Part shown: positions 19,862 through 62,272 of the stretch, piece by piece
Numbering within the stretch: the stretch's first letter is position 1
Layout of the letters: every line of letters begins with the position of its first letter
DNA from: Escherichia phage BAU.Micro_ELP-22
Sequence record: OR699282.2
Length of the DNA stretch: 64,000 nucleotides
Reading direction: 5' to 3' (one strand)
Notes under the pieces: model-generated
What the model was told of the DNA's origin: nothing
The model's input: only the letters and a program-made list of their open reading frames with translations
Database searches by the model: none
Program-made: the position numbers and the translations under genes

Positions 19862-20290
19862 ATGAATATCGAACAAACTATCCGTGAACATTCTTTCTTC
19901 GCTCCAGAAACTGGTCGTGTTATTGAGAGCGTCAAAATTGAAGAACTAATGGTCAATGTTAAATACAAAGAACCAAATGATGAGATTAGCAGTACTTTTT
20001 GTGCTCTACGTGCACCATTCCGTAATGAAAAAGCTAAGAAACCAGCATATGTTCTTGCCATTGCACTGGGTTGTGTTGTAAAACTTGCAGTTGATGAAAA
20101 TCTTCTGAATATTAAAGTTGCACCAAGCAATGACGATGAAAACATTGATTTGAACTTTGATGGTTCTCTTGATGAAGATGTATTTTTCCAACAGTCACTT
20201 GTTTACGACTTCCGTACAGTGACACATTCTCACATCAAGTTCATTAATGAAATGGTTGGGATTGTTGCTGAATACGAAGAATCTCTCTAA
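19862..20290 (+). CDS. C-terminal FFQ-x-S motif family member
   Basis: 142 aa; C-terminal DEDVFFQQSLVYD. Confidence 0.55.
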   Translation: MNIEQTIREHSFFAPETGRVIESVKIEELMVNVKYKEPNDEISSTFCALRAPFRNEKAKKPAYVLAIALGCVVKLAVDENLLNIKVAPSNDDENIDLNFDGSLDEDVFFQQSLVYDFRTVTHSHIKFINEMVGIVAEYEESL

Positions 20291-20301
20291 GTAAATACAA
20301 A

Positions 20302-20324
20302 AGCCTCCATTATGGAGGCTTTTA
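20302..20324 (+). terminator. Rho-independent terminator
   Basis: agcctcca/tggaggct hairpin followed by TTTT. Confidence 0.7.
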
Positions 20325-20343
20325 TCACATAAGGAAATGAAAT

Positions 20344-20895
20344 ATGATAGACCAAATTAAAATCCTTACAAAGCAAATCACTGATTTTCTTTCTGATAAA
20401 GATGGATTTAATACAGAAGTAAAAATGCACGGTGTTAGTGTTGATGTAATTGCACCAAATGGTAATGTAACAAGTTACGACATGTATGAATTACTTCTTT
20501 ATACTCTAGCAGTACGTAAACTAGGTAGTGATATTGAACTCAATATCAATACTGATGAAAGTGGGAATAAAATTTTTGCAATCAACACCAGTGCTAAATT
20601 CGATATCAGTACTGAAATTAAAAAAATAAATGAAAGTTTTATTGGCTTTAAGCATGAATCAATTCAAAGTGTTTTTATTGGAAAGCAAACTTCTAATAGT
20701 GAATGCCCATATTGTGTAATGACTTTATATAAAGATGGAAACTGGATGCGTCAAGATTTAGTATTTGCTGAACTTCTGTATGCATTTACACATGAACTTA
20801 AAATCGAATTGGACGATAGTGTTTATTGCTTTAAGAAAATTCGAAATATAACTAAAGATATACAAACCCAACTTAAAGAATTAAATGATAAATAA
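20344..20895 (+). CDS. Hypothetical protein
   Basis: 183 aa; AGGAAA RBS. Confidence 0.55.
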   Translation: MIDQIKILTKQITDFLSDKDGFNTEVKMHGVSVDVIAPNGNVTSYDMYELLLYTLAVRKLGSDIELNINTDESGNKIFAINTSAKFDISTEIKKINESFIGFKHESIQSVFIGKQTSNSECPYCVMTLYKDGNWMRQDLVFAELLYAFTHELKIELDDSVYCFKKIRNITKDIQTQLKELNDK

Positions 20896-21010
20896 ATATA
20901 CCAGAAATGGTTAACATATCATGTTACTTTCCTCCCTTACATAATAATGATGCGTTATTATATTTTCATTTTGTTCTTATTCCCCTTTTGGTACAAAATC
21001 ATTTTAGTAC

Positions 21011-21036
21011 TGCCCCGATCTTCGGGGCATTTTTCT
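21011..21036 (+). terminator. Rho-independent terminator
   Basis: tgccccg-atctt-cggggca hairpin followed by TTTTT. Confidence 0.7.
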
Positions 21037-21055
21037 TATCTAAAATTGAGGATAT

Positions 21056-21451
21056 ATGAAGAACAATATTGGAACTTCAATAATTAAACCACTTTCTTAT
21101 TACCTTGAAAAATTTAGAAGCACAAATGGTAATAAATTTAATAATATATTTCAGTTCTCTCATAAAGAATATATTACAATTGATCATTTTTCAAAGAAAC
21201 TAATGTATGTAAATGATAATAGTCATATTATTAAATTATCATTCGATATTGAGTTAGATAAATTAACATTTACGGAATACATTAATCAAAAAACTTCTTT
21301 TTTATGTCAATACAATAGGAAAGTATATAGTAATATTTCTATGTATCTAAATGATGAATATCACTTTCAACAATCTACAATAGAAGAAGTATTGTTCAGT
21401 ACTGAAGAATTAAAAGAACTATATTACTGGTATAATTATTTCACATCTTGA
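21056..21451 (+). CDS. C-terminal FFQ-x-S motif family member
   Basis: 131 aa; NDEYHFQQSTIEE; GAGGA RBS. Confidence 0.55.
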   Translation: MKNNIGTSIIKPLSYYLEKFRSTNGNKFNNIFQFSHKEYITIDHFSKKLMYVNDNSHIIKLSFDIELDKLTFTEYINQKTSFLCQYNRKVYSNISMYLNDEYHFQQSTIEEVLFSTEELKELYYWYNYFTS

Positions 21452-21506
21452 CATTATTGTGGGTTTATCCTACAATACATGATGATGCTGCATTGAGGAT
21501 AAATTT

Positions 21507-21917
21507 ATGAGTTTAGATTTACACAATGAACTAAAATATTTTTTAGATTTGGACATATCAGAATTGAACCACCACGTCAATCATATGACTAGTACTGTAT
21601 GGTGGTCTAATGATCAAGACGACCCAATTATCCAACTAAGTGATGAATCGTCAATTATGCGATTTTATAAGATTAATTATAAAACGAACATCAAGATCAC
21701 ATATGTACCATACAAAAACATACTACTAGTCGAAACACTTAATCCAAGTTCTTTATTAAAAATCACCGATTTAGATACATTACAAACAAGTGAATCTTTA
21801 TTCCAACGTTCATTAGTTGATGATCTTGGTGGTATTACTTTTGAAGATATATTACAATTGAAGAATATGTATAGTGAATTGTTGGAGATTAAAAACACTT
21901 TAGTAATGGGGAATTGA
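21507..21917 (+). CDS. C-terminal FFQ-x-S motif family member
   Basis: 136 aa; TSESLFQRSLVDD. Confidence 0.55.
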   Translation: MSLDLHNELKYFLDLDISELNHHVNHMTSTVWWSNDQDDPIIQLSDESSIMRFYKINYKTNIKITYVPYKNILLVETLNPSSLLKITDLDTLQTSESLFQRSLVDDLGGITFEDILQLKNMYSELLEIKNTLVMGN

Positions 21918-21918
21918 T

Positions 21919-22323
21919 ATGGTAAGTTTACTAGATATTGATAATACCAGTTTAGTGCTGGTGAAAAAAGGTTTAATTCCAAATTCTAAAAAAATTGATT
22001 ATGCTGTTATTGAAACAAATATTGGAAATATCTGGTACGACTCTGAAAGGGATATTGTGTTTAGCTGTGTAGACAGTGATCGTTCTGAATGTTGTAGAGT
22101 CGGTCATGACGGACAATTTGTTTTTGAATTTCGTTATTGGAAGGACGCAAAATTTCACCAAGAACTGGTTGCTTTGTCAAATGAACTATATACAGAAGAA
22201 TCGTTCTTCATGGCTAGTACTATTAATGATTTTGGTTCAGTTACATTTGAGTACTATAAAAAAATATACGCACTATCCAGAGAAGTTATGAAAATTATCA
22301 GAACTGCTGAAGGTAAAGAATAA
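21919..22323 (+). CDS. C-terminal FFQ-x-S motif family member
   Basis: 134 aa; TEESFFMASTIND. Confidence 0.55.
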   Translation: MVSLLDIDNTSLVLVKKGLIPNSKKIDYAVIETNIGNIWYDSERDIVFSCVDSDRSECCRVGHDGQFVFEFRYWKDAKFHQELVALSNELYTEESFFMASTINDFGSVTFEYYKKIYALSREVMKIIRTAEGKE

Positions 22324-22324: not shown

Positions 22325-22702
22325 ATGACTACTATATATGATATTTTGGGTGTTCTGAGTAGAAATATAGATGATGATTTTGTTATTGTTCAAGATACTA
22401 GAAATACATTTCAACTACCAATAGGTTCACCAGATAGGTTAATTTTTAATAGATACTCAAATGAACTAACTTACATCCATGATGGGATTGCAATTGTATC
22501 AGTTTCTATAAACGACTATACAATACGATATGTATATGACTTCAACGATTATTGTACAAGAATCCACAGTATTGATATTTCCGAAGAGGAACTATTCCAA
22601 TTGTCATTGATTGAGAAAAATGTAATAGGAATTACAGAAATTGGTATTATTAAAAAAGCATTAAACTATACAAATATAAGAATTAATGGTGGGTGCGGAT
22701 GA
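22325..22702 (+). CDS. C-terminal FFQ-x-S motif family member
   Basis: 125 aa; SEEELFQLSLIEK. Confidence 0.55.
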   Translation: MTTIYDILGVLSRNIDDDFVIVQDTRNTFQLPIGSPDRLIFNRYSNELTYIHDGIAIVSVSINDYTIRYVYDFNDYCTRIHSIDISEEELFQLSLIEKNVIGITEIGIIKKALNYTNIRINGGCG

Positions 22703-23154
22703 ATGTTGACGAAATAAAAAATCATTTTGAAATTGCAATGTCATGTGAATTTGACACACAACGTGTTCATGACCCGAAAGAACATATACGAATTTGTTGT
22801 GAATTGTCAGATGATTGTAATATTTTTATTGGAAAAACCTATGACATGATCGATCTTTCATGTATAGATCCATTGGAAAGAAAAACAAAATATTTATATC
22901 TGTACAACACAACATCAGATACGATTGCAATACAACTAATATCAACCACAACATCCCAAAGTTATTATAACATAACTGAGGTTAGTAGTTTAACGTTAAC
23001 CGAAGAAGGATTCTTTCAACAATCGCTTATTCGTGAAATTGGTGTTAGTTATGATGAGTTAAATGTATTAGTAGATTGTTTCGAAAAATTAAGTACTTTT
23101 GTATTATCCCTTTTTAATATACAGTCGCAAAATCCAATGGTGGTGAAATGCTAA
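22693..23154 (+). CDS. C-terminal FFQ-x-S motif family member
   Basis: 153 aa; TEEGFFQQSLIRE. Confidence 0.55.
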   Translation: MRMNVDEIKNHFEIAMSCEFDTQRVHDPKEHIRICCELSDDCNIFIGKTYDMIDLSCIDPLERKTKYLYLYNTTSDTIAIQLISTTTSQSYYNITEVSSLTLTEEGFFQQSLIREIGVSYDELNVLVDCFEKLSTFVLSLFNIQSQNPMVVKC

Positions 23155-23588
23155 ATCCAAGTAAATTTCTCCACTTACTTTCGATAACATCAATACCGGA
23201 TCTTACCAGTGAAACTAATGAATATCGTGAAGCTGGGGTGGTGTCTATGGAACTCGATACATTTGACCACAAATGCTATGTGACATATGACCCACCGCGT
23301 TATGGTAAAGAACATTCTTCTTTTATTTTTGTATTCGTATACACTGTATATGATAATACAACACTTGATGATGTTTGTATTGACACTTACGAAATTTGTG
23401 ATAATATCATAACTGATGACAACAATAACTCATTTGATATGTCACTATATAACACAGAAGAATCGTTGTTTCAACTTAGTACTGTTATTGATGCACCATC
23501 ATTAGAAGATATAAAACAATTTCAAGAACATCTTGACGCAGTTCGTGAGATGTTCTATAATCATTATCCAGAAGTAGAGTTCAATTAA
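23148..23588 (+). CDS. C-terminal FFQ-x-S motif family member
   Basis: 146 aa; TEESLFQLSTVID. Confidence 0.55.
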   Translation: MLNPSKFLHLLSITSIPDLTSETNEYREAGVVSMELDTFDHKCYVTYDPPRYGKEHSSFIFVFVYTVYDNTTLDDVCIDTYEICDNIITDDNNNSFDMSLYNTEESLFQLSTVIDAPSLEDIKQFQEHLDAVREMFYNHYPEVEFN

Positions 23589-24245: not shown

Positions 24246-25106
24246 ATGAAACCTATCCGAATACTTTCTCTTTTTAATGGAATGAGTGTGGGATATATGG
24301 CATTGCAAGATGCGGGTATCCCAGTTGAAAAATATTATTCATCCGAAATTGATAAGTACGCAATAGCTGAATCTCAATCTAACTTTCCTGATATTATCCA
24401 ATTGGGTGATATAACTAAGTGGAGAGAATGGGATATTGAGTGGGACAAAATAGATTTATTAATGGGTGGTTTCCCATGCCAAGCCTGGTCAGTTGCAGGT
24501 AAACAGGGTGGTTTAAATGATATACGTGGGCAGTTATTTTTAGTAATGGTTGAAATTTTTGATCATATCAAAAGTCTCAATCCTAACTTGAAATTTCTGT
24601 TTGAAAATGTTAAAATGAAGGAAGATTTCAAAGAATACATTAATAGTATTTTAGGAATCACGCCAGTACTGATAAACTCCCAGCATTATACGCCTCACTT
24701 CAGGCAGAGATATTACTGGTACAGTACTGATAAGCTTTTTATACCACCTGCATTATCCAATGCACCTAAACTTCAAGATATTATTGAAGATGGTTGGTAC
24801 ACTGACAGAACCGCTTCGTACTGTATAGATGCTAACTATTTTAAAGGTGGTGATTGTAACCAGTACTTTAATAAATCCAGACGACAATTGGTGTTTCGTG
24901 ACCCAGTGATCAGTCGTCAATATCTATTAGAGAATGGCAAAAGAAATATTGACTATAGACACTTAAGTGTAGTAGAATGTTGTAAATTACAGGGTGTTCC
25001 TGAAGATTTCTTTAAAGTGTCTAGTAAGACACAAGCATACAAAATGCTTGGGAATGGATGGACTATGCCAGTTATATCACATTTACTAAGAGAGATATTC
25101 TTTTGA
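24246..25106 (+). CDS. DNA cytosine-5 methyltransferase
   Basis: 286 aa; motif I LSLFNGMSVG, motif IV GFPCQAWS, motif VI LFENV, C-terminal LGNGWTMPV. Confidence 0.8.
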   Translation: MKPIRILSLFNGMSVGYMALQDAGIPVEKYYSSEIDKYAIAESQSNFPDIIQLGDITKWREWDIEWDKIDLLMGGFPCQAWSVAGKQGGLNDIRGQLFLVMVEIFDHIKSLNPNLKFLFENVKMKEDFKEYINSILGITPVLINSQHYTPHFRQRYYWYSTDKLFIPPALSNAPKLQDIIEDGWYTDRTASYCIDANYFKGGDCNQYFNKSRRQLVFRDPVISRQYLLENGKRNIDYRHLSVVECCKLQGVPEDFFKVSSKTQAYKMLGNGWTMPVISHLLREIFF

Positions 25107-25630: not shown

Positions 25631-26146
25631 ATGCCAATTCCTTATGTTAAAATTATTAATAATATTCTCGATTCATGGGAAGATGTTATTACTGGTAAAA
25701 AGCAACCATCACCAGTACATGCTTTATCTGGGAAACTTCAATTCAGAATGTCAAACCAAACTGAAACATTTAATAATCATGATATTTGCATTACATTAAA
25801 AACACCTATTAGTATTGTAATTAAAAAAAATAAAGATGATGAATTGACATTATCTATTGGTCGTGATAAAATCATTTTAAGTAATTTGTCTGAAGAAGAA
25901 TTCTTTCAAAGAAGTACTATTATCGATATGAAAGATTTCACATATGAATCATTGGTTGAACTCAATACACGTTTTAACGATATTCAGGAACGATTGCGAC
26001 CAATTCTTCGTATCGAAGAAGAAGCCTGGATTGAAAGTATTAGGAAGATGCAAGAAATGTTGAAAGAAAATATTAACAATCTGGGTAAAGCTACAATGGA
26101 ATTTGGTAAAACTTTTAAACTGAACTTTTCAAAGGATCGTAAATGA
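25631..26146 (+). CDS. C-terminal FFQ-x-S motif family member
   Basis: 171 aa from ATG 25631 (track start 25604 lies in the terminator); SEEEFFQRSTIID. Confidence 0.55.
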   Translation: MPIPYVKIINNILDSWEDVITGKKQPSPVHALSGKLQFRMSNQTETFNNHDICITLKTPISIVIKKNKDDELTLSIGRDKIILSNLSEEEFFQRSTIIDMKDFTYESLVELNTRFNDIQERLRPILRIEEEAWIESIRKMQEMLKENINNLGKATMEFGKTFKLNFSKDRK

Positions 26147-26598
26147 AAATTGATAATTTGATTCATGTTTTAGGATCTTTACATAAAATATTATCACATC
26201 TACATGAGATAAAGAAACTGGGATTTAACATCTCAAATTCAATTGAAACTACATTTAAATATCAATCAATTACTGGTGATGGTTATTACATAATCGAATA
26301 TACTTATGAAACCGATCCAGACTTCTATCCTCTTACGTTGAGAATTTATCCAACAAATCCGAGAGGAATTCACGACATATCATCAATTTCACTTGATCCA
26401 GATGGTGAAACGAGTATTGAATACAATAATGATTCAAAACCAGAATTTTACATTGATGATATTAAAATGATGTTCAACGATGAATATGTGTTCCAGCAAA
26501 GTACAGTGCATGATGTTGGAAGTACTAATGGACAATTTTGGAATACATGTTATTATCATATGATTGAAATTTGTAAATTACTAAAAGGTGATGATTAA
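26143..26598 (+). CDS. C-terminal FFQ-x-S motif family member
   Basis: 151 aa; NDEYVFQQSTVHD; ATGA overlap. Confidence 0.55.
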   Translation: MKIDNLIHVLGSLHKILSHLHEIKKLGFNISNSIETTFKYQSITGDGYYIIEYTYETDPDFYPLTLRIYPTNPRGIHDISSISLDPDGETSIEYNNDSKPEFYIDDIKMMFNDEYVFQQSTVHDVGSTNGQFWNTCYYHMIEICKLLKGDD

Positions 26599-26981
26599 TG
26601 AAATACAGCATTGAAGTACATTACACTACAGGGGACACTGAAACTGAAGATTCAGTTACCAATACATTGGATGTTCAATGGGAATCAAAGGATGAGGCAG
26701 TTGTAGCATTACAGTCTTTGAAAGAGCATTGGGTATTCTTTAAGAAACTCGATGATGCATATAGTAACGAACGTGCGACAATAATCGATGAAGCCAAACA
26801 TAAAGAATGGTTTGATCCAATGTCATGTGAATTCTCTTTCTTTGTAAAAATTGGAGATAAAAAAATTCCAGTACGAACACCGTGGAACGGCTACTTTGAA
26901 ACTCTTCATAATGCACGAGTTGTCGCTGTTGATAATCCTGAGCAAATCGATTTCGATTCATTGGACTGGAAAAAACTATGA
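26598..26981 (+). CDS. Hypothetical protein
   Basis: 127 aa; TAATG overlap. Confidence 0.5.
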   Translation: MKYSIEVHYTTGDTETEDSVTNTLDVQWESKDEAVVALQSLKEHWVFFKKLDDAYSNERATIIDEAKHKEWFDPMSCEFSFFVKIGDKKIPVRTPWNGYFETLHNARVVAVDNPEQIDFDSLDWKKL

Positions 26982-27421
26982 CAGTACTGCACCAATTGAA
27001 GAAGGTTAAGCATCCAGTTGTATACGAGGATTGGAAACGACAGAAGTTGATGGGTGATTTTTATTTCCCAAAATCTAAAGTTCTTGCGAATTCAAGATGT
27101 ACATATTTCAAACATAATGATAAAGATACAGTATTTGTTGAAATGGGTTTCAATCCATCAAATACAATGTTCAGTACTAACCAAACATTTTACAAATTTC
27201 ATATCCAAAAAGATTCATTTTCTATCATGATTTTAAAACTTTTCGTTGAAGATCTGCTATACCGTGGTGAAAGTGTTCCTTTATCATTAGTGGATATTCC
27301 TTATAATAATTTAGAGGAAATGTACTTCCAACAGTTGACAGTGCAAGAAAACTTCGGTATGATAGGACTTCAAGAGTTAGAGATGATTAAACAAATTCGT
27401 GATATCTACTTTAAGGAGTAA
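26978..27421 (+). CDS. C-terminal FFQ-x-S motif family member
   Basis: 147 aa; NLEEMYFQQLTVQE. Confidence 0.55.
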   Translation: MTVLHQLKKVKHPVVYEDWKRQKLMGDFYFPKSKVLANSRCTYFKHNDKDTVFVEMGFNPSNTMFSTNQTFYKFHIQKDSFSIMILKLFVEDLLYRGESVPLSLVDIPYNNLEEMYFQQLTVQENFGMIGLQELEMIKQIRDIYFKE

Positions 27422-27752: not shown

Positions 27753-27895
27753 TGGTGTATACTAATATTTTTACTGGTATTATGCGTAAATTTATTAATG
27801 GTACTGGATACGTATCTAATGACAACGGTAGTACATGGGTAAAAAATAATACGTCTGAATCTTTAGTAAAAAGTCTTCCGTATTATAAAGCTTGA
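27752..27895 (+). CDS. Small hypothetical protein
   Basis: 47 aa; TAATG coupling; below ORF-track threshold. Confidence 0.3.
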   Translation: MVYTNIFTGIMRKFINGTGYVSNDNGSTWVKNNTSESLVKSLPYYKA

Positions 27896-27920
27896 CACAT
27901 GAAAATGGAGTATGTATAAT
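27892..27920 (+). promoter_or_regulatory. Sigma70-type early promoter
   Basis: TTGACA, 17 nt spacer, TATAAT. Confidence 0.65.
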
Positions 27921-29542: not shown

Positions 29543-29829
29543 AAATTTTAGAAGTCTTGCTAGAAAAAGATGCATCTGGTACTCTTTATGTTGGTAATGA
29601 GTTTAGTCCAGATCCAATTGATATGTTACAGAGAATTCAAACACTGACTCAAAACATCTCGGTTAAAAAACCGTTTCAGAAAGAATTGGAAATCTTTTGT
29701 GATAAAGATATTGAACAGCATGATAATGTGATTTCAGATATTAAAAGTCTATTGACAAAAAATGGTTATGTAGAGTATAATCCTCCTATCGTAATCGTTA
29801 TTCCAGACTTCATGAAAGGAACAATCTAA
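29539..29829 (+). CDS. Hypothetical protein
   Basis: 96 aa; ATGA overlap. Confidence 0.5.
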   Translation: MKILEVLLEKDASGTLYVGNEFSPDPIDMLQRIQTLTQNISVKKPFQKELEIFCDKDIEQHDNVISDIKSLLTKNGYVEYNPPIVIVIPDFMKGTI

Positions 29830-31800: not shown

Positions 31801-32193
31801 ATGACTGAATCAGAACTACACGAAATGATAGATTTCATTTATGAAATGGTACAAGATAAAAATAACATCAATACAATTGCATCAGGCCCAAGACAAATTG
31901 GTAACCAAATAACATATTCTTTGTCCTTATGGTTACACCCGTGCATTAAGGTTGATTGTTTGTATTTCCGTCCTGATATTGATGCTTATTATTTTGTCAA
32001 TCATGATGCATTAATGAAACCACATAATCGTCCATTTGATGATACCTTTGTGACACACCCATTTTACCTGGCTGATTCCGAAGAAGATGAGTTTCAAAAG
32101 AACACAACGTTAAGCCCAGGTGAAATTTGCATCCCTTACGTACTTAAAGATAAAATGAATCACATCACAGAAGTTATGAAAACATGCTGGTAG
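31801..32193 (+). CDS. Hypothetical protein, divergent FFQ-family-like C-terminus
   Basis: 130 aa; SEEDEFQKNTTL. Confidence 0.5.
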   Translation: MTESELHEMIDFIYEMVQDKNNINTIASGPRQIGNQITYSLSLWLHPCIKVDCLYFRPDIDAYYFVNHDALMKPHNRPFDDTFVTHPFYLADSEEDEFQKNTTLSPGEICIPYVLKDKMNHITEVMKTCW

Positions 32194-32461: not shown

Positions 32462-32950
32462 ATGCCAATTCGTGGTGTACCAGAACCATTAATGGAAGTT
32501 ATTAAGCATGTTCGCATTGGAGATCGAGAAGTTAATCTTCGCCGTAATAACATTTATTACTTTAAAACTTCAGAAATGAGTTCTGTACAGATTGTCATTG
32601 GTACATCTATTAAGATCACTCGCGTACTTGATGGTAGTACTGACTTCGTTGAATATAATGTACTTACTAATAAAGTAACGCATATATATAAATGGAGTGG
32701 GTATAAAACTATTAAGTATGAATTTGACTTAGCTAGAACTGAAGAAGAACGATTTATGCTGAGTACTATCAATCCAGCAAACTATCCCGATCTTGATGCA
32801 TTTTTGCTAATTTTAAAATTGTATAATGAAGCAAATCAGAAAGCTAAAGAGTATGATAGAATCATGTATGAACGCCGAAAAGAACGTGCACAAAAAAGTT
32901 ATGATCTGTATGATAGCCCATACGTAAAATATAGTAAGGGATCGAAATGA
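32462..32950 (+). CDS. C-terminal FFQ-x-S motif family member (variant FM-x-S)
   Basis: 162 aa from ATG 32462 with AGGAG RBS; TEEERFMLSTINP. Confidence 0.5.
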   Translation: MPIRGVPEPLMEVIKHVRIGDREVNLRRNNIYYFKTSEMSSVQIVIGTSIKITRVLDGSTDFVEYNVLTNKVTHIYKWSGYKTIKYEFDLARTEEERFMLSTINPANYPDLDAFLLILKLYNEANQKAKEYDRIMYERRKERAQKSYDLYDSPYVKYSKGSK

Positions 32951-33351
32951 ATAAAGAAGTTCAAATTATCATAACTCCACCTATACAAAGTCTGGATGTA
33001 TCCATTAGTGATTTTTTGGAAAAATACTATGAATGGTTTAATGAAGATTCAGTAATTTATAACCATTCATTGCCTGATGGTTTCGTTGAGCTTATTGAAT
33101 TAAATGCCAAATCACTATACTTCTGTGTTGAATACAATGATTATATGACAGATGAAGCATATCGTTTTCGTTGTACATTGTATCCTAACCATTTTTCCAT
33201 TGGTTATAAAGATTACCAGTACTGTACCACTAACTATAGTGTTGAGGAAGAATTTCAGTACAATTTACTTTATCCTGATTTAGATTATACGATTGCAGTA
33301 CTGTTGACTAAAATCATGGATTTTTATAAAGATAAATATAATGCAGCCTAA
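32947..33351 (+). CDS. Hypothetical protein, divergent family-like C-terminus
   Basis: 134 aa; VEEEFQYNLLYPD. Confidence 0.45.
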   Translation: MNKEVQIIITPPIQSLDVSISDFLEKYYEWFNEDSVIYNHSLPDGFVELIELNAKSLYFCVEYNDYMTDEAYRFRCTLYPNHFSIGYKDYQYCTTNYSVEEEFQYNLLYPDLDYTIAVLLTKIMDFYKDKYNAA

Positions 33352-33962: not shown

Positions 33963-34298
<336 letters not shown>

Positions 34299-35624: not shown

Positions 35625-36033
<409 letters not shown>

Positions 36034-36037
<4 letters not shown>

Positions 36038-36804: not shown

Positions 36805-37194
<390 letters not shown>

Positions 37195-39424: not shown

Positions 39425-39850
39425 ATGAAATACAACATTGTTAAAATGGTGAACTATGTATTAAAAAACAACGCATGGTCACTGCATGATGTACATATAG
39501 AAGATATTGGTGAAGTTAGAGTATTTTGCTATGATCCAGATTTGAATCAAACCACAGATTTGAGTAAATGTTTTAATATTTTTCTTGGTTATGAATTCAA
39601 TAATCATTTTTATTCATTTGATGTGTATTTTGAAAAAGTTATATTCAGAAGTTATGAATGTGATAATGAAGATTATGATTATGATGATGAATCAATTGAA
39701 TTGAATGTTAACGATATTGATACTGAAGAAAAATTCTTCCAGTACTGCCTCGTTAACAACACATTAGGATTAACATTTGATGACATTAGTGCTATCCTTA
39801 AAGTTCAAAAATTGATTCCAGAAGAGGTATTAAATCCGTTAAATGACTAG
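39425..39850 (+). CDS. C-terminal FFQ-x-S motif family member
   Basis: 141 aa; TEEKFFQYCLVNN. Confidence 0.55.
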   Translation: MKYNIVKMVNYVLKNNAWSLHDVHIEDIGEVRVFCYDPDLNQTTDLSKCFNIFLGYEFNNHFYSFDVYFEKVIFRSYECDNEDYDYDDESIELNVNDIDTEEKFFQYCLVNNTLGLTFDDISAILKVQKLIPEEVLNPLND

Positions 39851-40058
39851 AACAGTTTACAAGCACAATGGTGTGGTGTATCTAGCAGATAATACTGGAA
39901 CTTGGATTGTTAATCAAGGTAATCCACCAAATCCATATTCAGTTGGAAGTGAGTTTTCACTTAAAAGAACATGGCTATCAACTGATAATATGTGTAAGTA
40001 TGGGGATTTTGATACATATGAAGATGCTATGAATCGTGTTCGTTCTATAATTGATTAA
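39843..40058 (+). CDS. Hypothetical protein
   Basis: 71 aa ORF. Confidence 0.45.
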   Translation: MTRTVYKHNGVVYLADNTGTWIVNQGNPPNPYSVGSEFSLKRTWLSTDNMCKYGDFDTYEDAMNRVRSIID

Positions 40059-40428
40059 AAGGTACTTGATGGATAGTCTAATAGTACGTATAATGCAAGA
40101 TGTTCGTAAGAATCTTTATACTGGTAATTTTGATGATCATAACATAAAAATATTATGTTATGATGGTTTCACACTGACACATCCATCAGAATCTAATAAT
40201 ATATACATAGCATATACTTCTCCTAATATTTTGTATCAATTTGATTTATATAGTACAATGGCTAAGATAACCTTAGATGTTTCTAATGAGCCGATTTTTA
40301 TAGCAGTACGTGATGTTGAGTACACAGAAGAGTCATTATTCCAGTACTCAATGATAAATGACATTGGTGACTTGACATTAGAAGAAATAAATGTTATAGT
40401 TGGTATGTGTCGTTTGATTAATCCATAA
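40051..40428 (+). CDS. C-terminal FFQ-x-S motif family member
   Basis: 125 aa; TEESLFQYSMIND. Confidence 0.55.
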   Translation: MIKRYLMDSLIVRIMQDVRKNLYTGNFDDHNIKILCYDGFTLTHPSESNNIYIAYTSPNILYQFDLYSTMAKITLDVSNEPIFIAVRDVEYTEESLFQYSMINDIGDLTLEEINVIVGMCRLINP

Positions 40429-41151: not shown

Positions 41152-41571
41152 ATGAGTTATTTGTTTACTTTAATTGATAAGTATGTTGACATTGTATACC
41201 GTCAAGTTTGTAGTGATACGTTTGAAACAAAAAACCCAATTAGAGATGGCATTTTTGATGTTGTCGTTGGATCATTTTTGAATGGATACACCGAGACATT
41301 ATACAACAGTAATAATATTTTTATTTCAGTTCAATCCAGACATACATCAGACTATGCTGTTAGCATTGATATTTGGGAAAATAATATAGAAATAGATATA
41401 ACGGAACATACTAACATTCATGTTGATGATACATTTAATCAATTAACTGAAGAAATGTACTTGCAGTTGAATTTTGTACATGATCTTACAAATATCAGTT
41501 ATGATACATTAAGGAAAATATGTTTTCTTAGTGGGGTGATCCGTAGTAATATGAGTAAGGATGGGAAGTGA
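41152..41571 (+). CDS. C-terminal FFQ-x-S motif family member (variant)
   Basis: 139 aa from ATG with GGTGA RBS; TEEMYLQLNFVHD. Confidence 0.5.
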   Translation: MSYLFTLIDKYVDIVYRQVCSDTFETKNPIRDGIFDVVVGSFLNGYTETLYNSNNIFISVQSRHTSDYAVSIDIWENNIEIDITEHTNIHVDDTFNQLTEEMYLQLNFVHDLTNISYDTLRKICFLSGVIRSNMSKDGK

Positions 41572-41572: not shown

Positions 41573-41989
41573 ATGTTAAAAATTCCACCTAAGTCGTTAA
41601 CACATCTTATTGAATGTGGTGTAATATTTTCCGAAGGTGATACCTCATCATACACATCGGTCGATGAACCTTATAATTTTTCATACCAATCTTATAAAAA
41701 TAATTCTAAAATTTCTTGTAGATATGCTGAAAACATATTAATAGATGTTTCGTTACATAATGTTCCGAAATTTTACATTGATATCTTTGGTGATTCTTTG
41801 ACAATTCGAACATATGATTATTTTATTAATAACGACCTCTTGAGTCTTCCAATTGAACATGATACTATAGATTCAGAGATGTTCTTTCAACTATCAACAG
41901 TTTACGATTTACAGGGTTTAACTGTTGAGCAGTTGAATGGAATATTTGAGATTTCACGAAACATACGAAGCAGGAATAAAAATGTCTAA
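41573..41989 (+). CDS. C-terminal FFQ-x-S motif family member
   Basis: 138 aa; DSEMFFQLSTVYD. Confidence 0.55.
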   Translation: MLKIPPKSLTHLIECGVIFSEGDTSSYTSVDEPYNFSYQSYKNNSKISCRYAENILIDVSLHNVPKFYIDIFGDSLTIRTYDYFINNDLLSLPIEHDTIDSEMFFQLSTVYDLQGLTVEQLNGIFEISRNIRSRNKNV

Positions 41990-42392
41990 TATTTTAAATG
42001 AAAAAACAGTTGATGTTGTTATTGGTGTTCTTAACACCGCAACTTCATTTCAGAAGAAACACAGTGTTGTATACTTCGGTGAAGATTGTTGGCTGAACTA
42101 TACTAATAATTCGTTTATAATTCGTGTAGAGGCTGATGATATTGGATTAACCGTTCAGGTAGGATGTGCCAAAACTGACAAACAAATCACTGTCATTGTT
42201 GATAAACTTACGTCTTCTTTTTATGATAGTATAGATGATTGTGAACACTATAGTTCAACATTTTATGATACAGAAGAAGAACATTTTATGGAAAGTACTG
42301 TTCAAGAGTTAGCTATTCCATATAAGCTAATGAAAGCAGTGAGTGATTTAATTTTAAAATATAAAAAAATAGGAGTTACTAATGCAATTTAA
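41982..42392 (+). CDS. C-terminal FFQ-x-S motif family member (variant FM-x-S)
   Basis: 136 aa from ATG with AGGAA RBS; TEEEHFMESTVQE. Confidence 0.5.
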   Translation: MSNILNEKTVDVVIGVLNTATSFQKKHSVVYFGEDCWLNYTNNSFIIRVEADDIGLTVQVGCAKTDKQITVIVDKLTSSFYDSIDDCEHYSSTFYDTEEEHFMESTVQELAIPYKLMKAVSDLILKYKKIGVTNAI

Positions 42393-55944: not shown

Positions 55945-56145
55945 ATGTTTACTTTATATCTTGCAGTAGTACTAACTAATGGTGAAATCACTCGCACCGT
56001 TGGTGAAGGTGTATATAAAACACCTGATCAGTGTTACTCTGCAACTCATTGGCCTCGTGATGCTGGTGATGAATCTCGCACTGAATACAAATGTATGAAG
56101 GTTAAAGGTGACTTTGTAAATCTAAAGGTTATTGAGACTAAGTAA
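55945..56145 (+). CDS. Small secreted or membrane protein
   Basis: 66 aa; hydrophobic N-terminus. Confidence 0.45.
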   Translation: MFTLYLAVVLTNGEITRTVGEGVYKTPDQCYSATHWPRDAGDESRTEYKCMKVKGDFVNLKVIETK

Positions 56146-56663
56146 TGGATATTAATGAGTTGTTGAAATTAGTGTTTAATCGTGAACGCCGCGATACAAG
56201 ACCAATTGAATATCAAGATGTGATACGCATTGAAACTGATTTCTGTTATGGTAAAACAACTCATGACCTTTTGAATCTCTCTGGAAAACGCTATGCTGAT
56301 GTTTGTTTTTCAGAGAGAAGTGATGGTTCAGAAATAACGAGTACTGATATTGTTTGTTACGCACGCAGTGCTGATAAATCTTATGAAATAGAACTTATAT
56401 ATTCCCCTAGTTCTAAAACAAATCATCACCGCCATATTTTATATGATGTTTACACACCACCTGGTATTGCTGAATATTTTGTTATTGATTATAGTACTGA
56501 AGAAAATGTGTTTCAACAAAGTTTGATTCATAACTTTGAGGTTAATGATCCATTAGTGCCAAAGTTATTCAAACTACTTGACACCATCGATGTTGATTTT
56601 GAATTTGTTATGTGTATTAGAACTTCTTTATTCAATGAATTCATGGAACTTTTTAATATATGA
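56145..56663 (+). CDS. C-terminal FFQ-x-S motif family member
   Basis: 172 aa; TEENVFQQSLIHN. Confidence 0.55.
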   Translation: MDINELLKLVFNRERRDTRPIEYQDVIRIETDFCYGKTTHDLLNLSGKRYADVCFSERSDGSEITSTDIVCYARSADKSYEIELIYSPSSKTNHHRHILYDVYTPPGIAEYFVIDYSTEENVFQQSLIHNFEVNDPLVPKLFKLLDTIDVDFEFVMCIRTSLFNEFMELFNI

Positions 56664-57343: not shown

Positions 57344-58006
57344 ATGTTAGTTAATCTTAATTTCATCACTTCACCTGACTGGGCATTACGTGGAGTTTCT
57401 TTAAACTTCAAGGAAACTATGTTTGACTACATTGGTGAGTGTACATTGGTAAATGCAACTTTTGATCCAAATCATCCGTTTTGGGCTGAAATTCATGATC
57501 CAAATGTAAACAACAATACATCTGTTATGACTATTGTCCAGACTAAACATGCAGGTATCCTTGCAGGTTATCGACCTGCACATGCAATTGAACACTTCAC
57601 TGATTACGATGTCGTGGATGAATACCCAATGATCCATGAAGATGGAAGTCTATACACATCTGAAGACTTCCGTGCTATCTTTAATAGTACTGATGATATT
57701 CTACCAAGTGGACGTCCACGTCCTGAGTCTTATCTTATGCATCCATCTTATGGTGTAGCAGATACGCTTGAACAGATTATGAATAAGTACAAGAACCTAA
57801 TTGAAGGTCCAGAAGAAATTGTCCTGTGCTATCACCCAGTACTGAAGTCTGAACAACCAAAGGATGGTGGATGGCGTTGGCATAAGAATGGTGAGTATAT
57901 CGGTACTAAACGAAGTAAAGAACGTTTTGAGTACTTGTATGATGAGCCAGATGTTGATGTGGTTTTGTGTTATAATTTTATTAAGGTGAAAAAGAAATGT
58001 ATCTAG
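57344..58006 (+). CDS. Hypothetical protein
   Basis: 220 aa from ATG with GAGGA RBS (track start 57326 is TTG). Confidence 0.55.
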   Translation: MLVNLNFITSPDWALRGVSLNFKETMFDYIGECTLVNATFDPNHPFWAEIHDPNVNNNTSVMTIVQTKHAGILAGYRPAHAIEHFTDYDVVDEYPMIHEDGSLYTSEDFRAIFNSTDDILPSGRPRPESYLMHPSYGVADTLEQIMNKYKNLIEGPEEIVLCYHPVLKSEQPKDGGWRWHKNGEYIGTKRSKERFEYLYDEPDVDVVLCYNFIKVKKKCI

Positions 58007-58239
58007 TACTAAGTTTTGTTGTTGCACTATTGTTTATGTTCTATCCTACACTAGTGGCATTAGCCACTAGGCGAACGATGGTAGATCTCACTACTGTATT
58101 CTTGCTAAACGTGGCATTAGTACTGGTGTCTATTATCATTCCAGTGAGCTTTACAGTTATTGATATTATTTCGGTATTACTCTTCGTGTTAAGTTATCTT
58201 ATGCTTATTGAAGAAACAAATGTTGACAAACGTTCGTAG
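57997..58239 (+). CDS. Small membrane protein
   Basis: 80 aa; two or three hydrophobic helices. Confidence 0.5.
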   Translation: MYLVLSFVVALLFMFYPTLVALATRRTMVDLTTVFLLNVALVLVSIIIPVSFTVIDIISVLLFVLSYLMLIEETNVDKRS

Positions 58240-58250
58240 TACTGTATAAT
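58223..58250 (+). promoter_or_regulatory. Early promoter, conserved-spacer family
   Basis: TTGACA-aacgttcgtagtactg-TATAAT, overlaps 3' end of previous gene. Confidence 0.65.
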
Positions 58251-58297
58251 GGTTCCTGTAGTCTGAAACTTAACACTTAAACTTGAGGTAAAAAAAT

Positions 58298-58624
58298 ATG
58301 CTATCAGTACTAATTTCAATTCCGTCTTTAATTCTGATTTGGCTTCTGGTTTACGAATGCTTTATTACTGATGATAATGATAAAAAAGAGTTCTCTGAGT
58401 TGTTTATGCTTGATTCACCGATTGTGCGTATTTTCTATACAGTCGTTGTGGTTTCAGTAATTGTATGGATTTTGAGTTTTATCTTCCCACTCGGTGCAGT
58501 AGTTAAAACTTTGGATTTAGTTGAGAACTTTGTTGCAATTATGTGGCTAATCAAAGCACTATTTGCAGGAAATGTTAAAATTTGGATTGATATTATCAAA
58601 TTCAAGTTCACGAATAAGATGTAA
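58298..58624 (+). CDS. Polytopic membrane protein
   Basis: 108 aa; three hydrophobic helices. Confidence 0.5.
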   Translation: MLSVLISIPSLILIWLLVYECFITDDNDKKEFSELFMLDSPIVRIFYTVVVVSVIVWILSFIFPLGAVVKTLDLVENFVAIMWLIKALFAGNVKIWIDIIKFKFTNKM

Positions 58625-58650
58625 CAGTGAAAATATCTCTATAGTATTAA

Positions 58651-58683
58651 ATACTTCTGTACATATATATAGTACAGAAGTAT
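58651..58683 (+). terminator. Long perfect hairpin, probable terminator
   Basis: atacttctgtac - atatatata - gtacagaagtat (12-bp stem) followed by TTCT. Confidence 0.5.
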
Positions 58684-58702
58684 TTCTCGTTAGAGGTTTG
58701 TT

Positions 58703-59062
58703 ATGAAGAGTTATATAAAATTAATAGCACTTGTGTGTGCATTATTTTCATGTTTTAGTTATGGTGCAGCAGCAGAAACATATTGTCGTAGTACTAAGGG
58801 AACGTGGCATGTATTGACTAACGACCCTAGAAATGGTAAAAATATAGTTGTTGATGGTGTGATTTATCGTTTTAAAGTAGAAAGTATTATCGGTAATAAA
58901 AAAATCTCGACTTATAGAGATGATTCTGGTACATTAGCAAACGTAATATTAATTGTAGACCCAAGAACTGGTAATGGTGATATCTATATAGTAATTTACT
59001 TGGACTCATCGGTACGCCGTGACCTAGATATAGATAAATTGAACTTACACTGTGAAATATAG
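58703..59062 (+). CDS. Secreted protein (paralogue of 59453 gene)
   Basis: 119 aa; signal peptide; shares C..G..H, IVVDGVIYRF pattern with 59453 ORF. Confidence 0.55.
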   Translation: MKSYIKLIALVCALFSCFSYGAAAETYCRSTKGTWHVLTNDPRNGKNIVVDGVIYRFKVESIIGNKKISTYRDDSGTLANVILIVDPRTGNGDIYIVIYLDSSVRRDLDIDKLNLHCEI

Positions 59063-59072
59063 GACTTAAAAA

Positions 59073-59450
59073 ATGGTAAACACTATTTTACTTTTGTTGT
59101 TGAATATTCCAATTATTCTGTCTTTTTTAATTTCTATTTTTATGGCAGGATATTGTTTAGTTGCAGTAATTCATTTCATTTTAACAAACAAATATGTCCT
59201 AATTTCTAAGCTTGATTCTATTTTTGCTTGCGATTCGATTGCTTATAACTTGTGGTTAATTTGTTCTTGCATTATGGGAGTAACTTTCCTTCTGTATGTA
59301 TTTGATGTCCTTGACCAAAAGTTCGTATACATCAGTACTGGATTGGCTCTTTATCCTGCTACGTGGTACTTGATTTACGTTGGTGATATATGGTATAGTA
59401 CTTATAAAGAATATCAGTACAAGAAATCACTTAACGTTGGAGGAAAATAA
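59073..59450 (+). CDS. Polytopic membrane protein
   Basis: 125 aa; about 4 hydrophobic helices. Confidence 0.5.
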   Translation: MVNTILLLLLNIPIILSFLISIFMAGYCLVAVIHFILTNKYVLISKLDSIFACDSIAYNLWLICSCIMGVTFLLYVFDVLDQKFVYISTGLALYPATWYLIYVGDIWYSTYKEYQYKKSLNVGGK

Positions 59451-59452
59451 TC

Positions 59453-59803
59453 ATGAAAATTATTTTATTTTTTGTATGTATGTTAATGTGTGGATTGTCA
59501 TATGCTGAACCATTGGAAGGTTTAGTTTGTACAGATGGTAATATTAAACATATCTATCAAGGTGATAGTGACAATCGAGATATTGTATATATTGATGGAC
59601 AATCATATACGTTTGTTAAAGAGCATACAGTAGGCGACATTAGCTTCACTGAGTTTTCTAACGACACAGACCCTAACTTCTTAGCGTTTATTGAAGTAGA
59701 TGTATATGAAGATAGTAATGGCACACAATATGCTAAATTAGTTATGATGCGTCGTGGTGCTAAAGAAACTAGTTTTGGTGGCTTGTGTAAATATAAGGAT
59801 TGA
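59453..59803 (+). CDS. Secreted protein (paralogue of 58703 gene)
   Basis: 116 aa; signal peptide SYA-EP; IVYIDGQSYTF. Confidence 0.55.
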   Translation: MKIILFFVCMLMCGLSYAEPLEGLVCTDGNIKHIYQGDSDNRDIVYIDGQSYTFVKEHTVGDISFTEFSNDTDPNFLAFIEVDVYEDSNGTQYAKLVMMRRGAKETSFGGLCKYKD

Positions 59804-60494: not shown

Positions 60495-60831
60495 AACTCA
60501 AATAGAATTAAAGAAATTTGTTTCATTCTATTTTCCTGATGACCCACGTAATTCACAAAAAGATATTGAATATTATAATATCCTATCTAAACAGTTAATG
60601 AGAAAGTTTCAACAGTGTTTAACTATATTCAATACAGATGGAAGACGTAGATACCGAATCGTTTCAATGAATGATGAAAACGCAAATTTCTTTGATTACG
60701 ATGTAGTTTTTAGAGCATATAATGATGATCGTATAAAATTAAATTATGATCAAATTATACTTGACCTGAATGTTATATGTGTTATAATCACTCACGTAGC
60801 CGAACTTAATGGTTTTAAAGAATGGTATTGA
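60487..60831 (+). CDS. Hypothetical protein
   Basis: 114 aa; overlap coupling. Confidence 0.5.
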   Translation: MDKTQIELKKFVSFYFPDDPRNSQKDIEYYNILSKQLMRKFQQCLTIFNTDGRRRYRIVSMNDENANFFDYDVVFRAYNDDRIKLNYDQIILDLNVICVIITHVAELNGFKEWY

Positions 60832-60845
60832 ATAGAGGATAACAT

Positions 60846-61112
60846 ATGAAGCTTAAATTACAATATAATGGATTTACTTTACGTAATGATACTGAATTTA
60901 TTAATCGTTCTCCTGGTGCTGAACTGTTTTTACGAGAGATGAACATTCCTTTCATCATTACTACAGTGGGCGACCGTGAAGTTCTACAATATGCAGAGCA
61001 TCCGATTATTGATGTTCCTTGGTACTCTGAGCATATGTACATGGATATGGCACGTCGCTACAACTGTAAGTTCGTAGTTGAAGGTGATAAAATTACAGTC
61101 GAATTTAAATAA
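60846..61112 (+). CDS. Hypothetical protein
   Basis: 88 aa; GAGGA RBS. Confidence 0.5.
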   Translation: MKLKLQYNGFTLRNDTEFINRSPGAELFLREMNIPFIITTVGDREVLQYAEHPIIDVPWYSEHMYMDMARRYNCKFVVEGDKITVEFK

Positions 61113-61124
61113 GGTAAATTAAAA

Positions 61125-61418
61125 ATGATCAGTACTTCAGTTAATGAAAGCATCGTCGCTGACGTAGAAATGGTTAAAGAATGTGCAGATGAAACTCTTC
61201 GTGATATGTACATTAATGATTTAATTACTGAATACGGTAGTCGTGGTGTACACGAATTTATTCGTTTAAGTGGAGAGTTGATGAAAAATCGAATTCGTAT
61301 GAAGCTTAACGTACATCCAAAAGCATGGGCATTTACATTAAAATACGCAGAAGATATTGTGAATTTGCGTCGAACTGAAGTATATGAACGTTTGCACAAT
61401 GGTATGTTAGATAAATGA
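61125..61418 (+). CDS. Hypothetical protein
   Basis: 97 aa ORF. Confidence 0.5.
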   Translation: MISTSVNESIVADVEMVKECADETLRDMYINDLITEYGSRGVHEFIRLSGELMKNRIRMKLNVHPKAWAFTLKYAEDIVNLRRTEVYERLHNGMLDK

Positions 61419-61427
61419 TTGTAAAAA

Positions 61428-61457
61428 AGGAATTCTTAAATGAATTCCTTTTTGTTT
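61428..61457 (+). terminator. Rho-independent terminator
   Basis: aggaattc/gaattcct hairpin followed by TTTTT. Confidence 0.7.
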
Positions 61458-61470
61458 ATAAGGTATAGTA

Positions 61471-61692
61471 ATGAAATATATAGTACTTGTACTGATATTA
61501 TTCAGTACTGTTGTAAGTGCTAAACAAAAAGAATATGTTAAATGTATAAATTATGAAGAGAAATATGTTGAAACATATAAAAAAAGTATAATTAAAAACG
61601 TTTCGATTACTAACAGAGCAACAATCATTGTACTTAAAAATGGGTTAATTATGCTATATAAACCACACGTTAAATGTGAAATTATTAATTGA
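61471..61692 (+). CDS. Small secreted protein
   Basis: 73 aa; signal peptide ending VVSA-KQ. Confidence 0.5.
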   Translation: MKYIVLVLILFSTVVSAKQKEYVKCINYEEKYVETYKKSIIKNVSITNRATIIVLKNGLIMLYKPHVKCEIIN

Positions 61693-61699
61693 GGAAATT

Positions 61700-62272
61700 A
61701 TGAATCGTAAAGGTCGTTTTAAAGTATCAAAAAAGAACAAAAGTTCTAGGTTTAAACCTATTGTTTTAACAGTTAAATCTAACAAAGATTTAACTGCACT
61801 TAGTAAAAAGATAATTTCATCTAAGATTGAAGTATCATACGTAAATTCATTAAAATATATGAATGTCAAACCACTGGACCAACTCATTTCACTTATATTT
61901 GAACGTAATGATTTTGAGATATCAGTAGATGATTATAGAGCCTATAATGCTGGTTTCATTAATGTTACTTGTAATAAAAAACTAACTGAGTTGGAAAATT
62001 TGTCATGTATAATAAATCTAGATAAAGGTGTTGTGAAGTACCATTTTGTACATTTCACTAATATCAATAATGGAATGGGTGTACAATCCAGACCTATAGT
62101 GCCTACGTGTGATGTTACTAAATTAGCAAAGCTCAATGATGAAGAATATTTTCAAGAAAGCATTGTAACTGAGCATTTAGATGATATAATAGCTACTTAC
62201 AAAGAATGCATATGGGTGTTGAATGCTATAAAACCTAAATTGTGTTTAATGAATATTGTTCGTGATTTATGA
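61700..62272 (+). CDS. C-terminal FFQ-x-S motif family member (variant)
   Basis: 190 aa from ATG with GAGGAAA RBS; DEEYFQESIVTEH. Confidence 0.5.
   Translation: MNRKGRFKVSKKNKSSRFKPIVLTVKSNKDLTALSKKIISSKIEVSYVNSLKYMNVKPLDQLISLIFERNDFEISVDDYRAYNAGFINVTCNKKLTELENLSCIINLDKGVVKYHFVHFTNINNGMGVQSRPIVPTCDVTKLAKLNDEEYFQESIVTEHLDDIIATYKECIWVLNAIKPKLCLMNIVRDL

Follow-up and report, generated by a model that had tools for sequence, protein, structure and literature searches.

Analysis of a 64,000-nucleotide stretch of Escherichia phage BAU.Micro_ELP-22 (OR699282.2; this whole stretch is referred to as the window) revealed a family of small proteins that share a C-terminal signature module and are otherwise highly variable. 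It is a genuine and very large family, specific to one clade and not described before, and 22 open reading frames (ORFs) of the window belong to it. As the best explanation of the results as a whole, we propose, with slightly less than even confidence, that these proteins are single-domain paralogues in which the signature forms a conserved helical keel, and that they would serve as a repertoire of early cytoplasmic binders. The window had a G+C content of about 32% with nearly all genes on the + strand, and extended from the genes of topoisomerase II and the clamp loader into a long run of genes that are “hypothetical” in every public record. The Asteriusvirus coliphages PBECO4, 121Q, phAPEC6, G17 and SP27 (~350 kb) were 98-99.9% identical to it; judged by sequence, the source phage is a Rak2-like jumbo myovirus of E. 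coli of the Asteriusvirus type.

A protein family defined by its C-terminal signature

Each ORF was named oN after the window position N at which its start codon begins. The initial annotation had listed the start positions of 22 ORFs, and an ORF encoding 117-190 residues was present at every one of them, always on the + strand. The start codons agreed with the public annotation of 121Q in 21 of the 22 cases, the exception being o41152, which starts at GTG 41143 in 121Q and not at ATG 41152. The signature [TS]-E-E-x-[FYL]-F-[QM]-x-S-[TL]-[VI]-x-[DE], followed by a second helix, was found in all 22 ORFs, aligned by position. The F-[QM] anchor lined up the same residues in every member, and the likeness was positional rather than compositional. 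With a 43-column profile, scores were 35-54 bits for the 22 members and at most 8.6 bits for the remaining 571 stop-to-stop ORFs in six frames. Because this test was circular, two further tests were run. In the leave-one-out test, 20 of the 22 held-out members scored above every non-family ORF (10.7-39.5 versus 6.5-9.8 bits), and o31801 (8.3 bits) and o32947 (5.7 bits) failed. A profile made from only 92 non-orthologous members outside the window recovered 20 window members at E <= 5e-4 and gave 6-7 bits to the same two ORFs; o31801 reached 23 bits only if the profile contained o31801 itself. By these scores, the window set consists of 20 solid members and two probable divergent ones, o31801 and o32947, which are marginal. 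Alignment and profile analysis of the 22 C-terminal segments thus agreed with the initial annotation that they belong to one real family, and its estimate of about a fifth of the genes was also accurate, with 22 family genes among ~111 coding sequences in the equivalent stretch of 121Q. Two further window ORFs, 16839-17420 and 43776-44117, looked alike by eye and fell below every profile threshold.

In an alignment of 133 members, the columns of the signature held Thr or Ser in 108, the two Glu in 122 and 125, Phe in 131, Gln in 116 and Met in 17, and Ser in 115, followed by [TL][VI]-x-[DEN]. A Leu or Ile stood two residues ahead of the first Glu in ~40% of the members. The signature started at about residue 85-120 of these proteins of 117-190 residues and was not N-terminal. 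At the sequence level, the N-terminal regions were unrelated, as described before: BLAST and phmmer all-against-all comparisons linked only o39425 and o40051 (phmmer E = 4e-6, the sole such pair in the window), and 131 family N-terminal regions fell by single linkage into 95 unlinked clusters. Iterative profile searches from 56 seeds against the family and background ORFs never linked more than seven regions and recruited 0 background ORFs. The N-terminal parts were narrow in length (median 94 residues, interquartile range 84-102), and a crude count showed a weak excess of beta-propensity in them (0.64 versus 0.57, p = 6e-7).

The window members are given below with coordinates, strand, length in residues, signature, leave-one-out score (LOO, bits) and score with the outside-member profile (ext, bits).

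o19862: 19862..20290, +, 142 residues, DEDVFFQQSLVYD, module at 20159-20287; LOO 17.3, ext 36.5; orthologue of 121Q gene 80
o21056: 21056..21451, +, 131 residues, NDEYHFQQSTIEE; LOO 26.1, ext 16.7
o21507: 21507..21917, +, 136 residues, TSESLFQRSLVDD; LOO 26.1, ext 38.7; a sigma-70-like promoter at 21448-21476 (11/12 positions) ends 31 nt before it
o21919: 21919..22323, +, 134 residues, TEESFFMASTIND; LOO 39.5, ext 44.0; modelled with AlphaFold
o22325: 22325..22702, +, 125 residues, SEEELFQLSLIEK; LOO 19.2, ext 28.8
o22693: 22693..23154, +, 153 residues, GTG start, TEEGFFQQSLIRE; LOO 31.5, ext 41.1
o23148: 23148..23588, +, 146 residues, TEESLFQLSTVID, the most acidic member with an isoelectric point (pI) of 4.1; LOO 25.0, ext 34.8
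o25631: 25631..26146, +, 171 residues, SEEEFFQRSTIID, ~40 extra C-terminal residues; LOO 27.3, ext 37.1
o26143: 26143..26598, +, 151 residues, NDEYVFQQSTVHD; LOO 19.4, ext 23.5
o26978: 26978..27421, +, 147 residues, LEEMYFQQLTVQE; LOO 12.1, ext 21.8
o31801, probable divergent member: 31801..32193, +, 130 residues, SEEDEFQKNTTLS, with N replacing S; LOO 8.3 (rank 23), ext 6.2
o32462: 32462..32950, +, 162 residues, TEEERFMLSTINP, basic (pI 9.2); LOO 15.4, ext 31.5
o32947, probable divergent member: 32947..33351, +, 134 residues, SVEEEFQYNLLYP; LOO 5.7 (rank 23), ext 7.2
o35684: 35684..36037, +, 117 residues, TEEEYFQMSTVQE; LOO 28.5, ext 39.5; a sigma-70-like promoter at 35625-35652 (11/12 positions) ends 32 nt before it
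o36805: 36805..37194, +, 129 residues, DEADEFQKRTVYE; LOO 15.7, ext 15.5
o39425: 39425..39850, +, 141 residues, TEEKFFQYCLVNN; LOO 19.5, ext 34.9
o40051: 40051..40428, +, 125 residues, TTG start, TEESLFQYSMIND; LOO 38.2, ext 40.1; modelled with AlphaFold
o41152: 41152..41571, +, 139 residues (142 from GTG 41143), TEEMYLQLNFVHD; LOO 11.8, ext 31.7
o41573: 41573..41989, +, 138 residues, DSEMFFQLSTVYD; LOO 33.1, ext 37.9
o41982: 41982..42392, +, 136 residues, TEEEHFMESTVQE; LOO 23.0, ext 34.4
o56145: 56145..56663, +, 172 residues, TEENVFQQSLIHN, ~40 residues past the module; LOO 19.5, ext 25.6
o61700: 61700..62272, +, 190 residues, NDEEYFQESIVTE, long basic N-terminal part (pI 9.2); LOO 10.7, ext 17.1

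Eighteen of the 22 members were acidic, with pI values of 4.1-5.0. The long basic o61700 was similar to two long basic members of 121Q at 116 kb and 133 kb, and o35684 had full-length relatives in Salmonella phage Munch and in the external cluster P0019.

Extent of the family and database status

The count of at least 22 members in the initial annotation held for the window but was a large underestimate for the genome. In the complete genome of 121Q (NC_025447.1), put together from seven pieces, 56 of 2,999 ORFs matched the profile at E < 1e-3, all of them on the + strand and 0 on the - strand, and ~10 additional weak ORFs also bore the motif. The 56 family ORFs, equal to ~9% of the 618 features that are annotated in 121Q, comprised the 22 orthologues of the window members, two ORFs at 116.4 and 132.8 kb, 28 at 160.7-189.2 kb, and four at 200, 240, 255 and 256 kb. 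A second and larger array was located outside the window, at 160,735-189,183 of 121Q, with 28 profile matches and ~10 weak ones. It contained a five-copy tandem subgroup at 170.9-173.3 kb with the sequence W-[DGN]-S-E-[ED]-Y-Y-F-Q-[QN]-S.

When 1.84 billion representative proteins were scanned exhaustively with HMMER, 113 clusters were recovered at E <= 1e-3. Among them, 111 were proteins of 62-222 residues with the module at the C-terminus, and in none of the 113 was the module carried on a large protein. The outside clusters gave a sharper consensus, TEE-E-[FY]-F-Q-x-S-[TL]-[VI]-x-D-[FL]-x-x-[LI]-T-[FY]-E-[ED]. When the consensus module was compared with 50,697 phage records by tblastn, 70 records were matched, all of them Rak2-like, with hosts from the genera Escherichia, Klebsiella, Salmonella, Erwinia, Yersinia, Pectobacterium, Serratia, Cronobacter and Xanthomonas; the breakdown by genus was about the same as that of the 72 records matched by the phage topoisomerase genes. 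Salmonella phage Munch carried 13-14 members within a 50-kb stretch, and ten other outside members that were looked up were unnamed metagenome proteins. By these sequence searches, the module is confined to Rak2-like phages and their uncultured relatives. A full-length profile of the 22 sequences matched only 25 close orthologues in an index of 5.8 billion proteins because its N-terminal columns were noise. The profile of the module alone matched only five fragments in this word-based index, being too short a query to pass its word filter.

Searches of Pfam, NCBIfam, PADLOC, the Protein Data Bank (PDB) sequences and PHROGs gave no family-wide or functional assignment, in keeping with the earlier view that this was not a described family. 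Pfam-A produced scattered single-member matches (best E = 6e-4), none common to several members, and no recognisable extra domain in any window member. NCBIfam gave 0 matches, PADLOC gave one stray match, and the best hit of the PDB profile search was to designed helical repeats (E 0.023). The 22 members were spread over ~20 PHROGs, all of “unknown function”, and no PHROG with an assigned function was among them. Cross-matches between PHROGs ran only via the C-terminal module, as in o19862, whose residues 84-139 matched phrog_17453 and residues 86-134 matched phrog_27549; phrog_17453 was matched by six members.

Full-text literature searches found no description of the family, and searches of the literature for transcript data on this phage group turned up none. 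In the searched parts of the genome papers, it is reported that paralogues make up ~10% of the proteins of RaK2 (Simoliunas et al. 2013, PMC3622015) and that 22 ORFs of CBB have internal similarity; the searched parts of the RaK2, CBB, phAPEC6 and Sharanji genome papers did not single out the family. The searched passages of a jumbo-phage survey, which termed a ~35-copy zinc-ribbon family of Bacillus phage G “unprecedented” (Iyer et al. 2021, PMC7824862), did not mention it.

Predicted structure of two members

AlphaFold2 models were obtained for o40051 (predicted local distance difference test score (pLDDT) 86.8, predicted template modelling score (pTM) 0.80) and o21919 (pLDDT 71.6, pTM 0.63). 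The model of o40051 consisted of a helix at residues 10-21, five strands across residues 32-85, and two helices at residues 93-102 and 110-120, and that of o21919 of eight strands followed by helices at residues 93-102 and 110-130. The two proteins have unrelated N-terminal sequences, and both were modelled as a compact domain of a beta-meander and two helices. In both models the signature formed the first C-terminal helix, which was the most confident part (block 91-100, pLDDT ~90-95). A fold search of the BFVD database matched only uncharacterised proteins of the same phage group, where independently computed models of other Rak2-like phage proteins with 12-17% identity reached template modelling scores of up to 0.60. 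Polo-box domains and p32/MAM33-family proteins, which have an antiparallel beta-meander under C-terminal helices, are among the nearest known comparisons.

Virion absence, promoters and selection

None of the phAPEC6 orthologues was found among the 62 virion proteins identified by mass spectrometry (PMC7247149 Table 1). The orthologues checked were gp039c, 054c, 083c, 084c, 087c, 088c, 092c, 093c, 102c, 103c, 105c, 120c, 121c, 127c-132c and 134c. In the 121Q record, no family member was flagged as structural.

A consensus scan for sigma-70-like promoters (>=11/12 positions) found 32 on the + strand of the window and 2 on the - strand, and 105 versus 13 (- strand) in 121Q, where they were densest at 50-100 kb. 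The family lies among hypothetical genes, and the sigma-70-like promoters around it favour one strand. Perfect or near-perfect combinations of TTGACA, a 16-18 nt spacer and TATAAT were seen, for example, at 13806-13834, 27892-27920, 29752-29781, 30299-30327, 39015-39042 and 46110-46137. Such matches suggest that many transcription units of the window may be read by the host RNA polymerase.

Between the window and 121Q, the ratio of nonsynonymous to synonymous substitution rates (dN/dS) was highest in the N-terminal part (0.34), lower in the module (0.14) and lowest in the other window genes (0.054). The family genes are thus real and under constraint, though more weakly than the neighbouring genes and most weakly in their variable part, and the selection on them is purifying but relaxed. 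Four members, o32462 (85%), o36805 (82%), o39425 and o40051, were 80-85% identical to 121Q with indels, whereas the genes flanking them were 99-100% identical. The stretch at 26598-26981 was likewise 80-85% identical with indels, and from their sequences the divergent genes look like hot spots of local recombinational replacement. ORFs 34391-34717 and 34771-35043 were without a counterpart in 121Q.

The modules were ~26% identical in all pairs, independently of the distance between the genes, and the nearest module relative lay within three genes in 14% of cases, compared with 10% expected. Several paralogues had full-length relatives at 33-45% identity among the external clusters. The distance-independent identity and the full-length outside relatives indicate that the duplications are old and that the copies have been individually kept (dN/dS < 1). 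Given the distance-independent similarity, recent local duplication does not account for the arrays, except for the five-copy subgroup of 121Q. The earlier description of the family as diversifying calls for qualification: the N-terminal parts have diverged beyond sequence recognition and show a higher dN/dS, but the duplications date far back and each copy has been maintained in its own right.

Proposed mechanism and alternative explanations

In the reading that we tentatively favor, the family is specific to the clade of Rak2-like jumbo phages and expanded in ancient times, and its proteins, which are small, mostly acidic and not part of the virion, would each consist of one compact alpha/beta domain. 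The domain would comprise an often helical N-terminus, an antiparallel beta-meander of 5-8 strands over ~95 residues, and a C-terminal helix-loop-helix, with the sequence [LI]-[TS]-E-E-x-[FYL]-F-[QM]-x-S-[TL]-[VI]-x-D at the start of the first C-terminal helix. Within the signature, Ser/Thr may serve as the N-cap, followed by a first turn that is acidic and by a hydrophobic staple; packing on the sheet and on helix 2 would then fall to the Phe, which is invariant, and to the Gln/Met, the small Ser and the beta-branched residues. The alternation of Gln with Met and the small Ser were read as signs of buried contacts. The signature could thus be the structural keel of the fold, and the beta-sheet part would have diverged past sequence recognition. 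The genes appear to lie in operon-like runs behind sigma-70-type promoters, from which the host RNA polymerase would transcribe them early in infection, and in the cytoplasm the proteins would form a repertoire that binds or inhibits components of the host or the phage, with specificity placed in the variable sheet. The copies are old, individually conserved and absent from virions, which suggests that they probably have many distinct intracellular activities. We infer that an early interaction with the host, in host takeover or anti-defence, may be among their roles.

Several observations weigh against this proposal. Both models were computed from one mixed alignment whose N-terminal columns are barely homologous, which may have biased them toward a common beta-meander. 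The packing of the signature on the sheet was deduced from the pTM and the order of secondary-structure elements rather than from coordinates. The E-E, Q, S and D residues are near-invariant in a family that is otherwise ~26% identical; such conservation exceeds the usual needs of a fold core, and a shared site for a ligand or partner would also fit. The promoter matches are consensus scans only, and the second array of 121Q (160-189 kb) has fewer sigma-70-like promoters.

The initial annotation had described a shared docking module with variable effector heads. In such a modular adaptor, an autonomous C-terminal helix-loop-helix would bind one partner, for which the phage ClpA/ClpP/ClpS/HslV-type proteolytic machinery, RNA polymerase or the sliding clamp would be candidates, and unrelated N-terminal parts would bring different targets or activities. 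This arrangement, which we consider unlikely although worth serious attention, would account for the N-terminal parts that could not be linked even iteratively while the module unites all members, for the conservation of the polar E, E, Q, S and D at 86-94%, and for the lower dN/dS of the module than of the N-terminal part, and it would fit the ClpS, two ClpP-like, HslV-like and ClpA-like proteins annotated in 121Q. However, the uniform N-terminal length, the two compact single-domain models (pTM 0.63 and 0.80) and the restriction of the module to short proteins in all 113 clusters, with no extra domain in the window members, weakened the docking model. The short module-only entries were gene fragments, no N-terminal part matched or resembled any enzyme or effector domain, which speaks against effector heads, and no observation ties the family to a particular partner. 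A specific version, in which the helix pair docks on one common machine and ~60 beta-sheet parts each recognise a different host protein and feed it to the phage ClpA/ClpP/ClpS/HslV-type system, would be a long shot. The same low likelihood was assigned to intracellular assemblies, in which the helical hairpins of different paralogues would bundle into homo- or hetero-oligomers instead of binding host proteins one by one: the two conserved amphipathic C-terminal helices and the retention of each of dozens of old paralogues would suit them, but the monomer pTM of 0.80 suggests that the helices are satisfied intramolecularly, and the structural resemblances stay under the level that indicates homology. 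Sliding-clamp binding was rejected as a function of the signature. Clamp-binding motifs have the form Q-x-x-[LIM]-x-x-[FY]-[FY] (PIP-box) or QL[SD]LF and lie on a flexible terminal tail, whereas the family sequence Q-x-S-[TL]-[VI]-x-D-[FL] has Thr at position 4 in 83 of 133 members and Asp at position 7, and is helical and internal.

The signature was also compared with processing and targeting signals, namely a protease site or degron, or a prohead-type site of packaged and cleaved internal proteins. TEV/3C protease sites read E-x-x-Y/F-F-Q followed by S/G, and the T4 prohead protease (gp21) cuts at [LI]-x-E. The signature has Glu at P6, an aromatic residue at P3, Phe at P2 and Gln at P1, and the frequent Leu or Ile ahead of the first Glu would suit a prohead-type site. 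Nevertheless, a signal of this kind is very improbable: the signature lies in a helix predicted with a pLDDT of 90-95 and not in an exposed loop, P1' is unconstrained, conservation runs ~30 residues past the putative site, and no member turned up in the virion proteome of phAPEC6 or carries a structural flag in the 121Q record. The 121Q annotation lists ClpP-, HslV-, ClpA- and gp21-like proteases and no 3C- or TEV-like one. TEV/3C cleavage, a prohead-protease site and a capsid-targeting signal were rejected on account of the helical context, the virion absence and the absence of an annotated cognate protease. An artefact, in which the AT-rich composition of the genome produced the motif by coincidence or the ORFs do not represent genes, might be suggested by the G+C content of ~32% and the two statistically marginal members, but has already been refuted by the 26-bit gap between the members and all other ORFs, the 0 of 56 matches on the non-coding strand of 121Q, the dN/dS well below 1, and the presence of the same signature in related proteins of phages from other host genera.

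Comparison with known systems and significance

The ankyrin/PRANC (F-box-like) adaptors of poxviruses combine a variable N-terminal part with a short conserved helical C-terminal element. The likeness is a logical analogy only, as both are large viral paralogue families; the phage proteins have no ankyrin repeats and no Pfam F-box or PRANC match, the bacterial host has no SCF ligase, and the helices appear in the models to be part of the same domain as the N-terminal part. If the adaptor repertoire were true, it would be a bacterial-virus counterpart of the F-box/PRANC logic. The internal proteins of T4 (IPI-III, Alt) are likewise sequence-diverse phage proteins with one short conserved element. 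In these packaged T4 proteins, the prohead protease cuts the capsid-targeting element, which is N-terminal and ~10 residues long, whereas the element described here is C-terminal, ~35 residues long and predicted to be helical, and its proteins are absent from virions. As in the zinc-ribbon family of phage G (PMC7824862), one small domain occurs in dozens of copies in same-strand arrays; the fold and motif are different here, without a zinc ribbon, and the copies number at least 56 in 121Q compared with ~35.

About one in eleven genes of a 350-kb phage thus belongs to a single undescribed family, a copy number that is unusual for a phage. The searches yielded neither a database name for the family nor a similar known structure. 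A compact profile now labels ~60 “hypothetical proteins” per Rak2-like genome, and the members are candidates for new functions in host takeover or anti-defence, in phages that are considered for therapy. Once worked out, the role of the conserved helix would account for much of the dark matter of Rak2-like genomes.

Gene neighbourhood and further observations

The following features of the window were observed around the family genes.

24246-25106: C5-cytosine DNA methyltransferase gene, between two family clusters
33985-39408: seven tRNA genes (Gly-tcc x2, Ser-tga, Ser-gct, Met-cat, Asn-gtt, Thr-tgt), intermixed with family members and small ORFs
44107-44919: gene of a second virion protein (gp078c), adjoining the gp077 gene
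44962-46116, - strand: lone minus-strand gene of a 384-residue virion protein (phAPEC6 gp077)
50913-51878: gene of an RpoD-like sigma factor of 321 residues, in the middle of the region
57997-59803: genes of small membrane and secreted proteins in repeated alternation

The 121Q record showed a slightly different tRNA set, including tRNA-Leu, for the stretch matching 33985-39408. The counterpart of gp077 in 121Q was annotated as an Ig-domain structural protein, and the gp077 and gp078c genes were set inside an otherwise + strand, non-structural region. At 57997-59803, the ORFs 58298-58624 and 59073-59450 encoded proteins that looked multi-transmembrane, with a common ILSF...I...A...C pattern, and the ORFs 58703-59062 and 59453-59803 encoded signal-peptide proteins with similar Cys-containing, beta-rich sequences; this stretch has the look of a two-gene cassette that was duplicated.

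Genes 48, 464, 473, 475 and 581 of 121Q, which lie outside the window, were annotated as a ClpS-like adaptor, two ClpP-like proteases, an HslV-like peptidase and a ClpA-like ATPase. Such a Clp/HslV set would give the phage a nearly complete proteolytic system. Further paralogue arrays were located in 121Q at 117-131 kb, 131.3-135.2 kb and 156-160.5 kb. One of them consisted of ~15 RCC1-like “DNA condensation” genes on the - strand, and there were also long runs of ORFs of ~60-75 residues with near-identical length.

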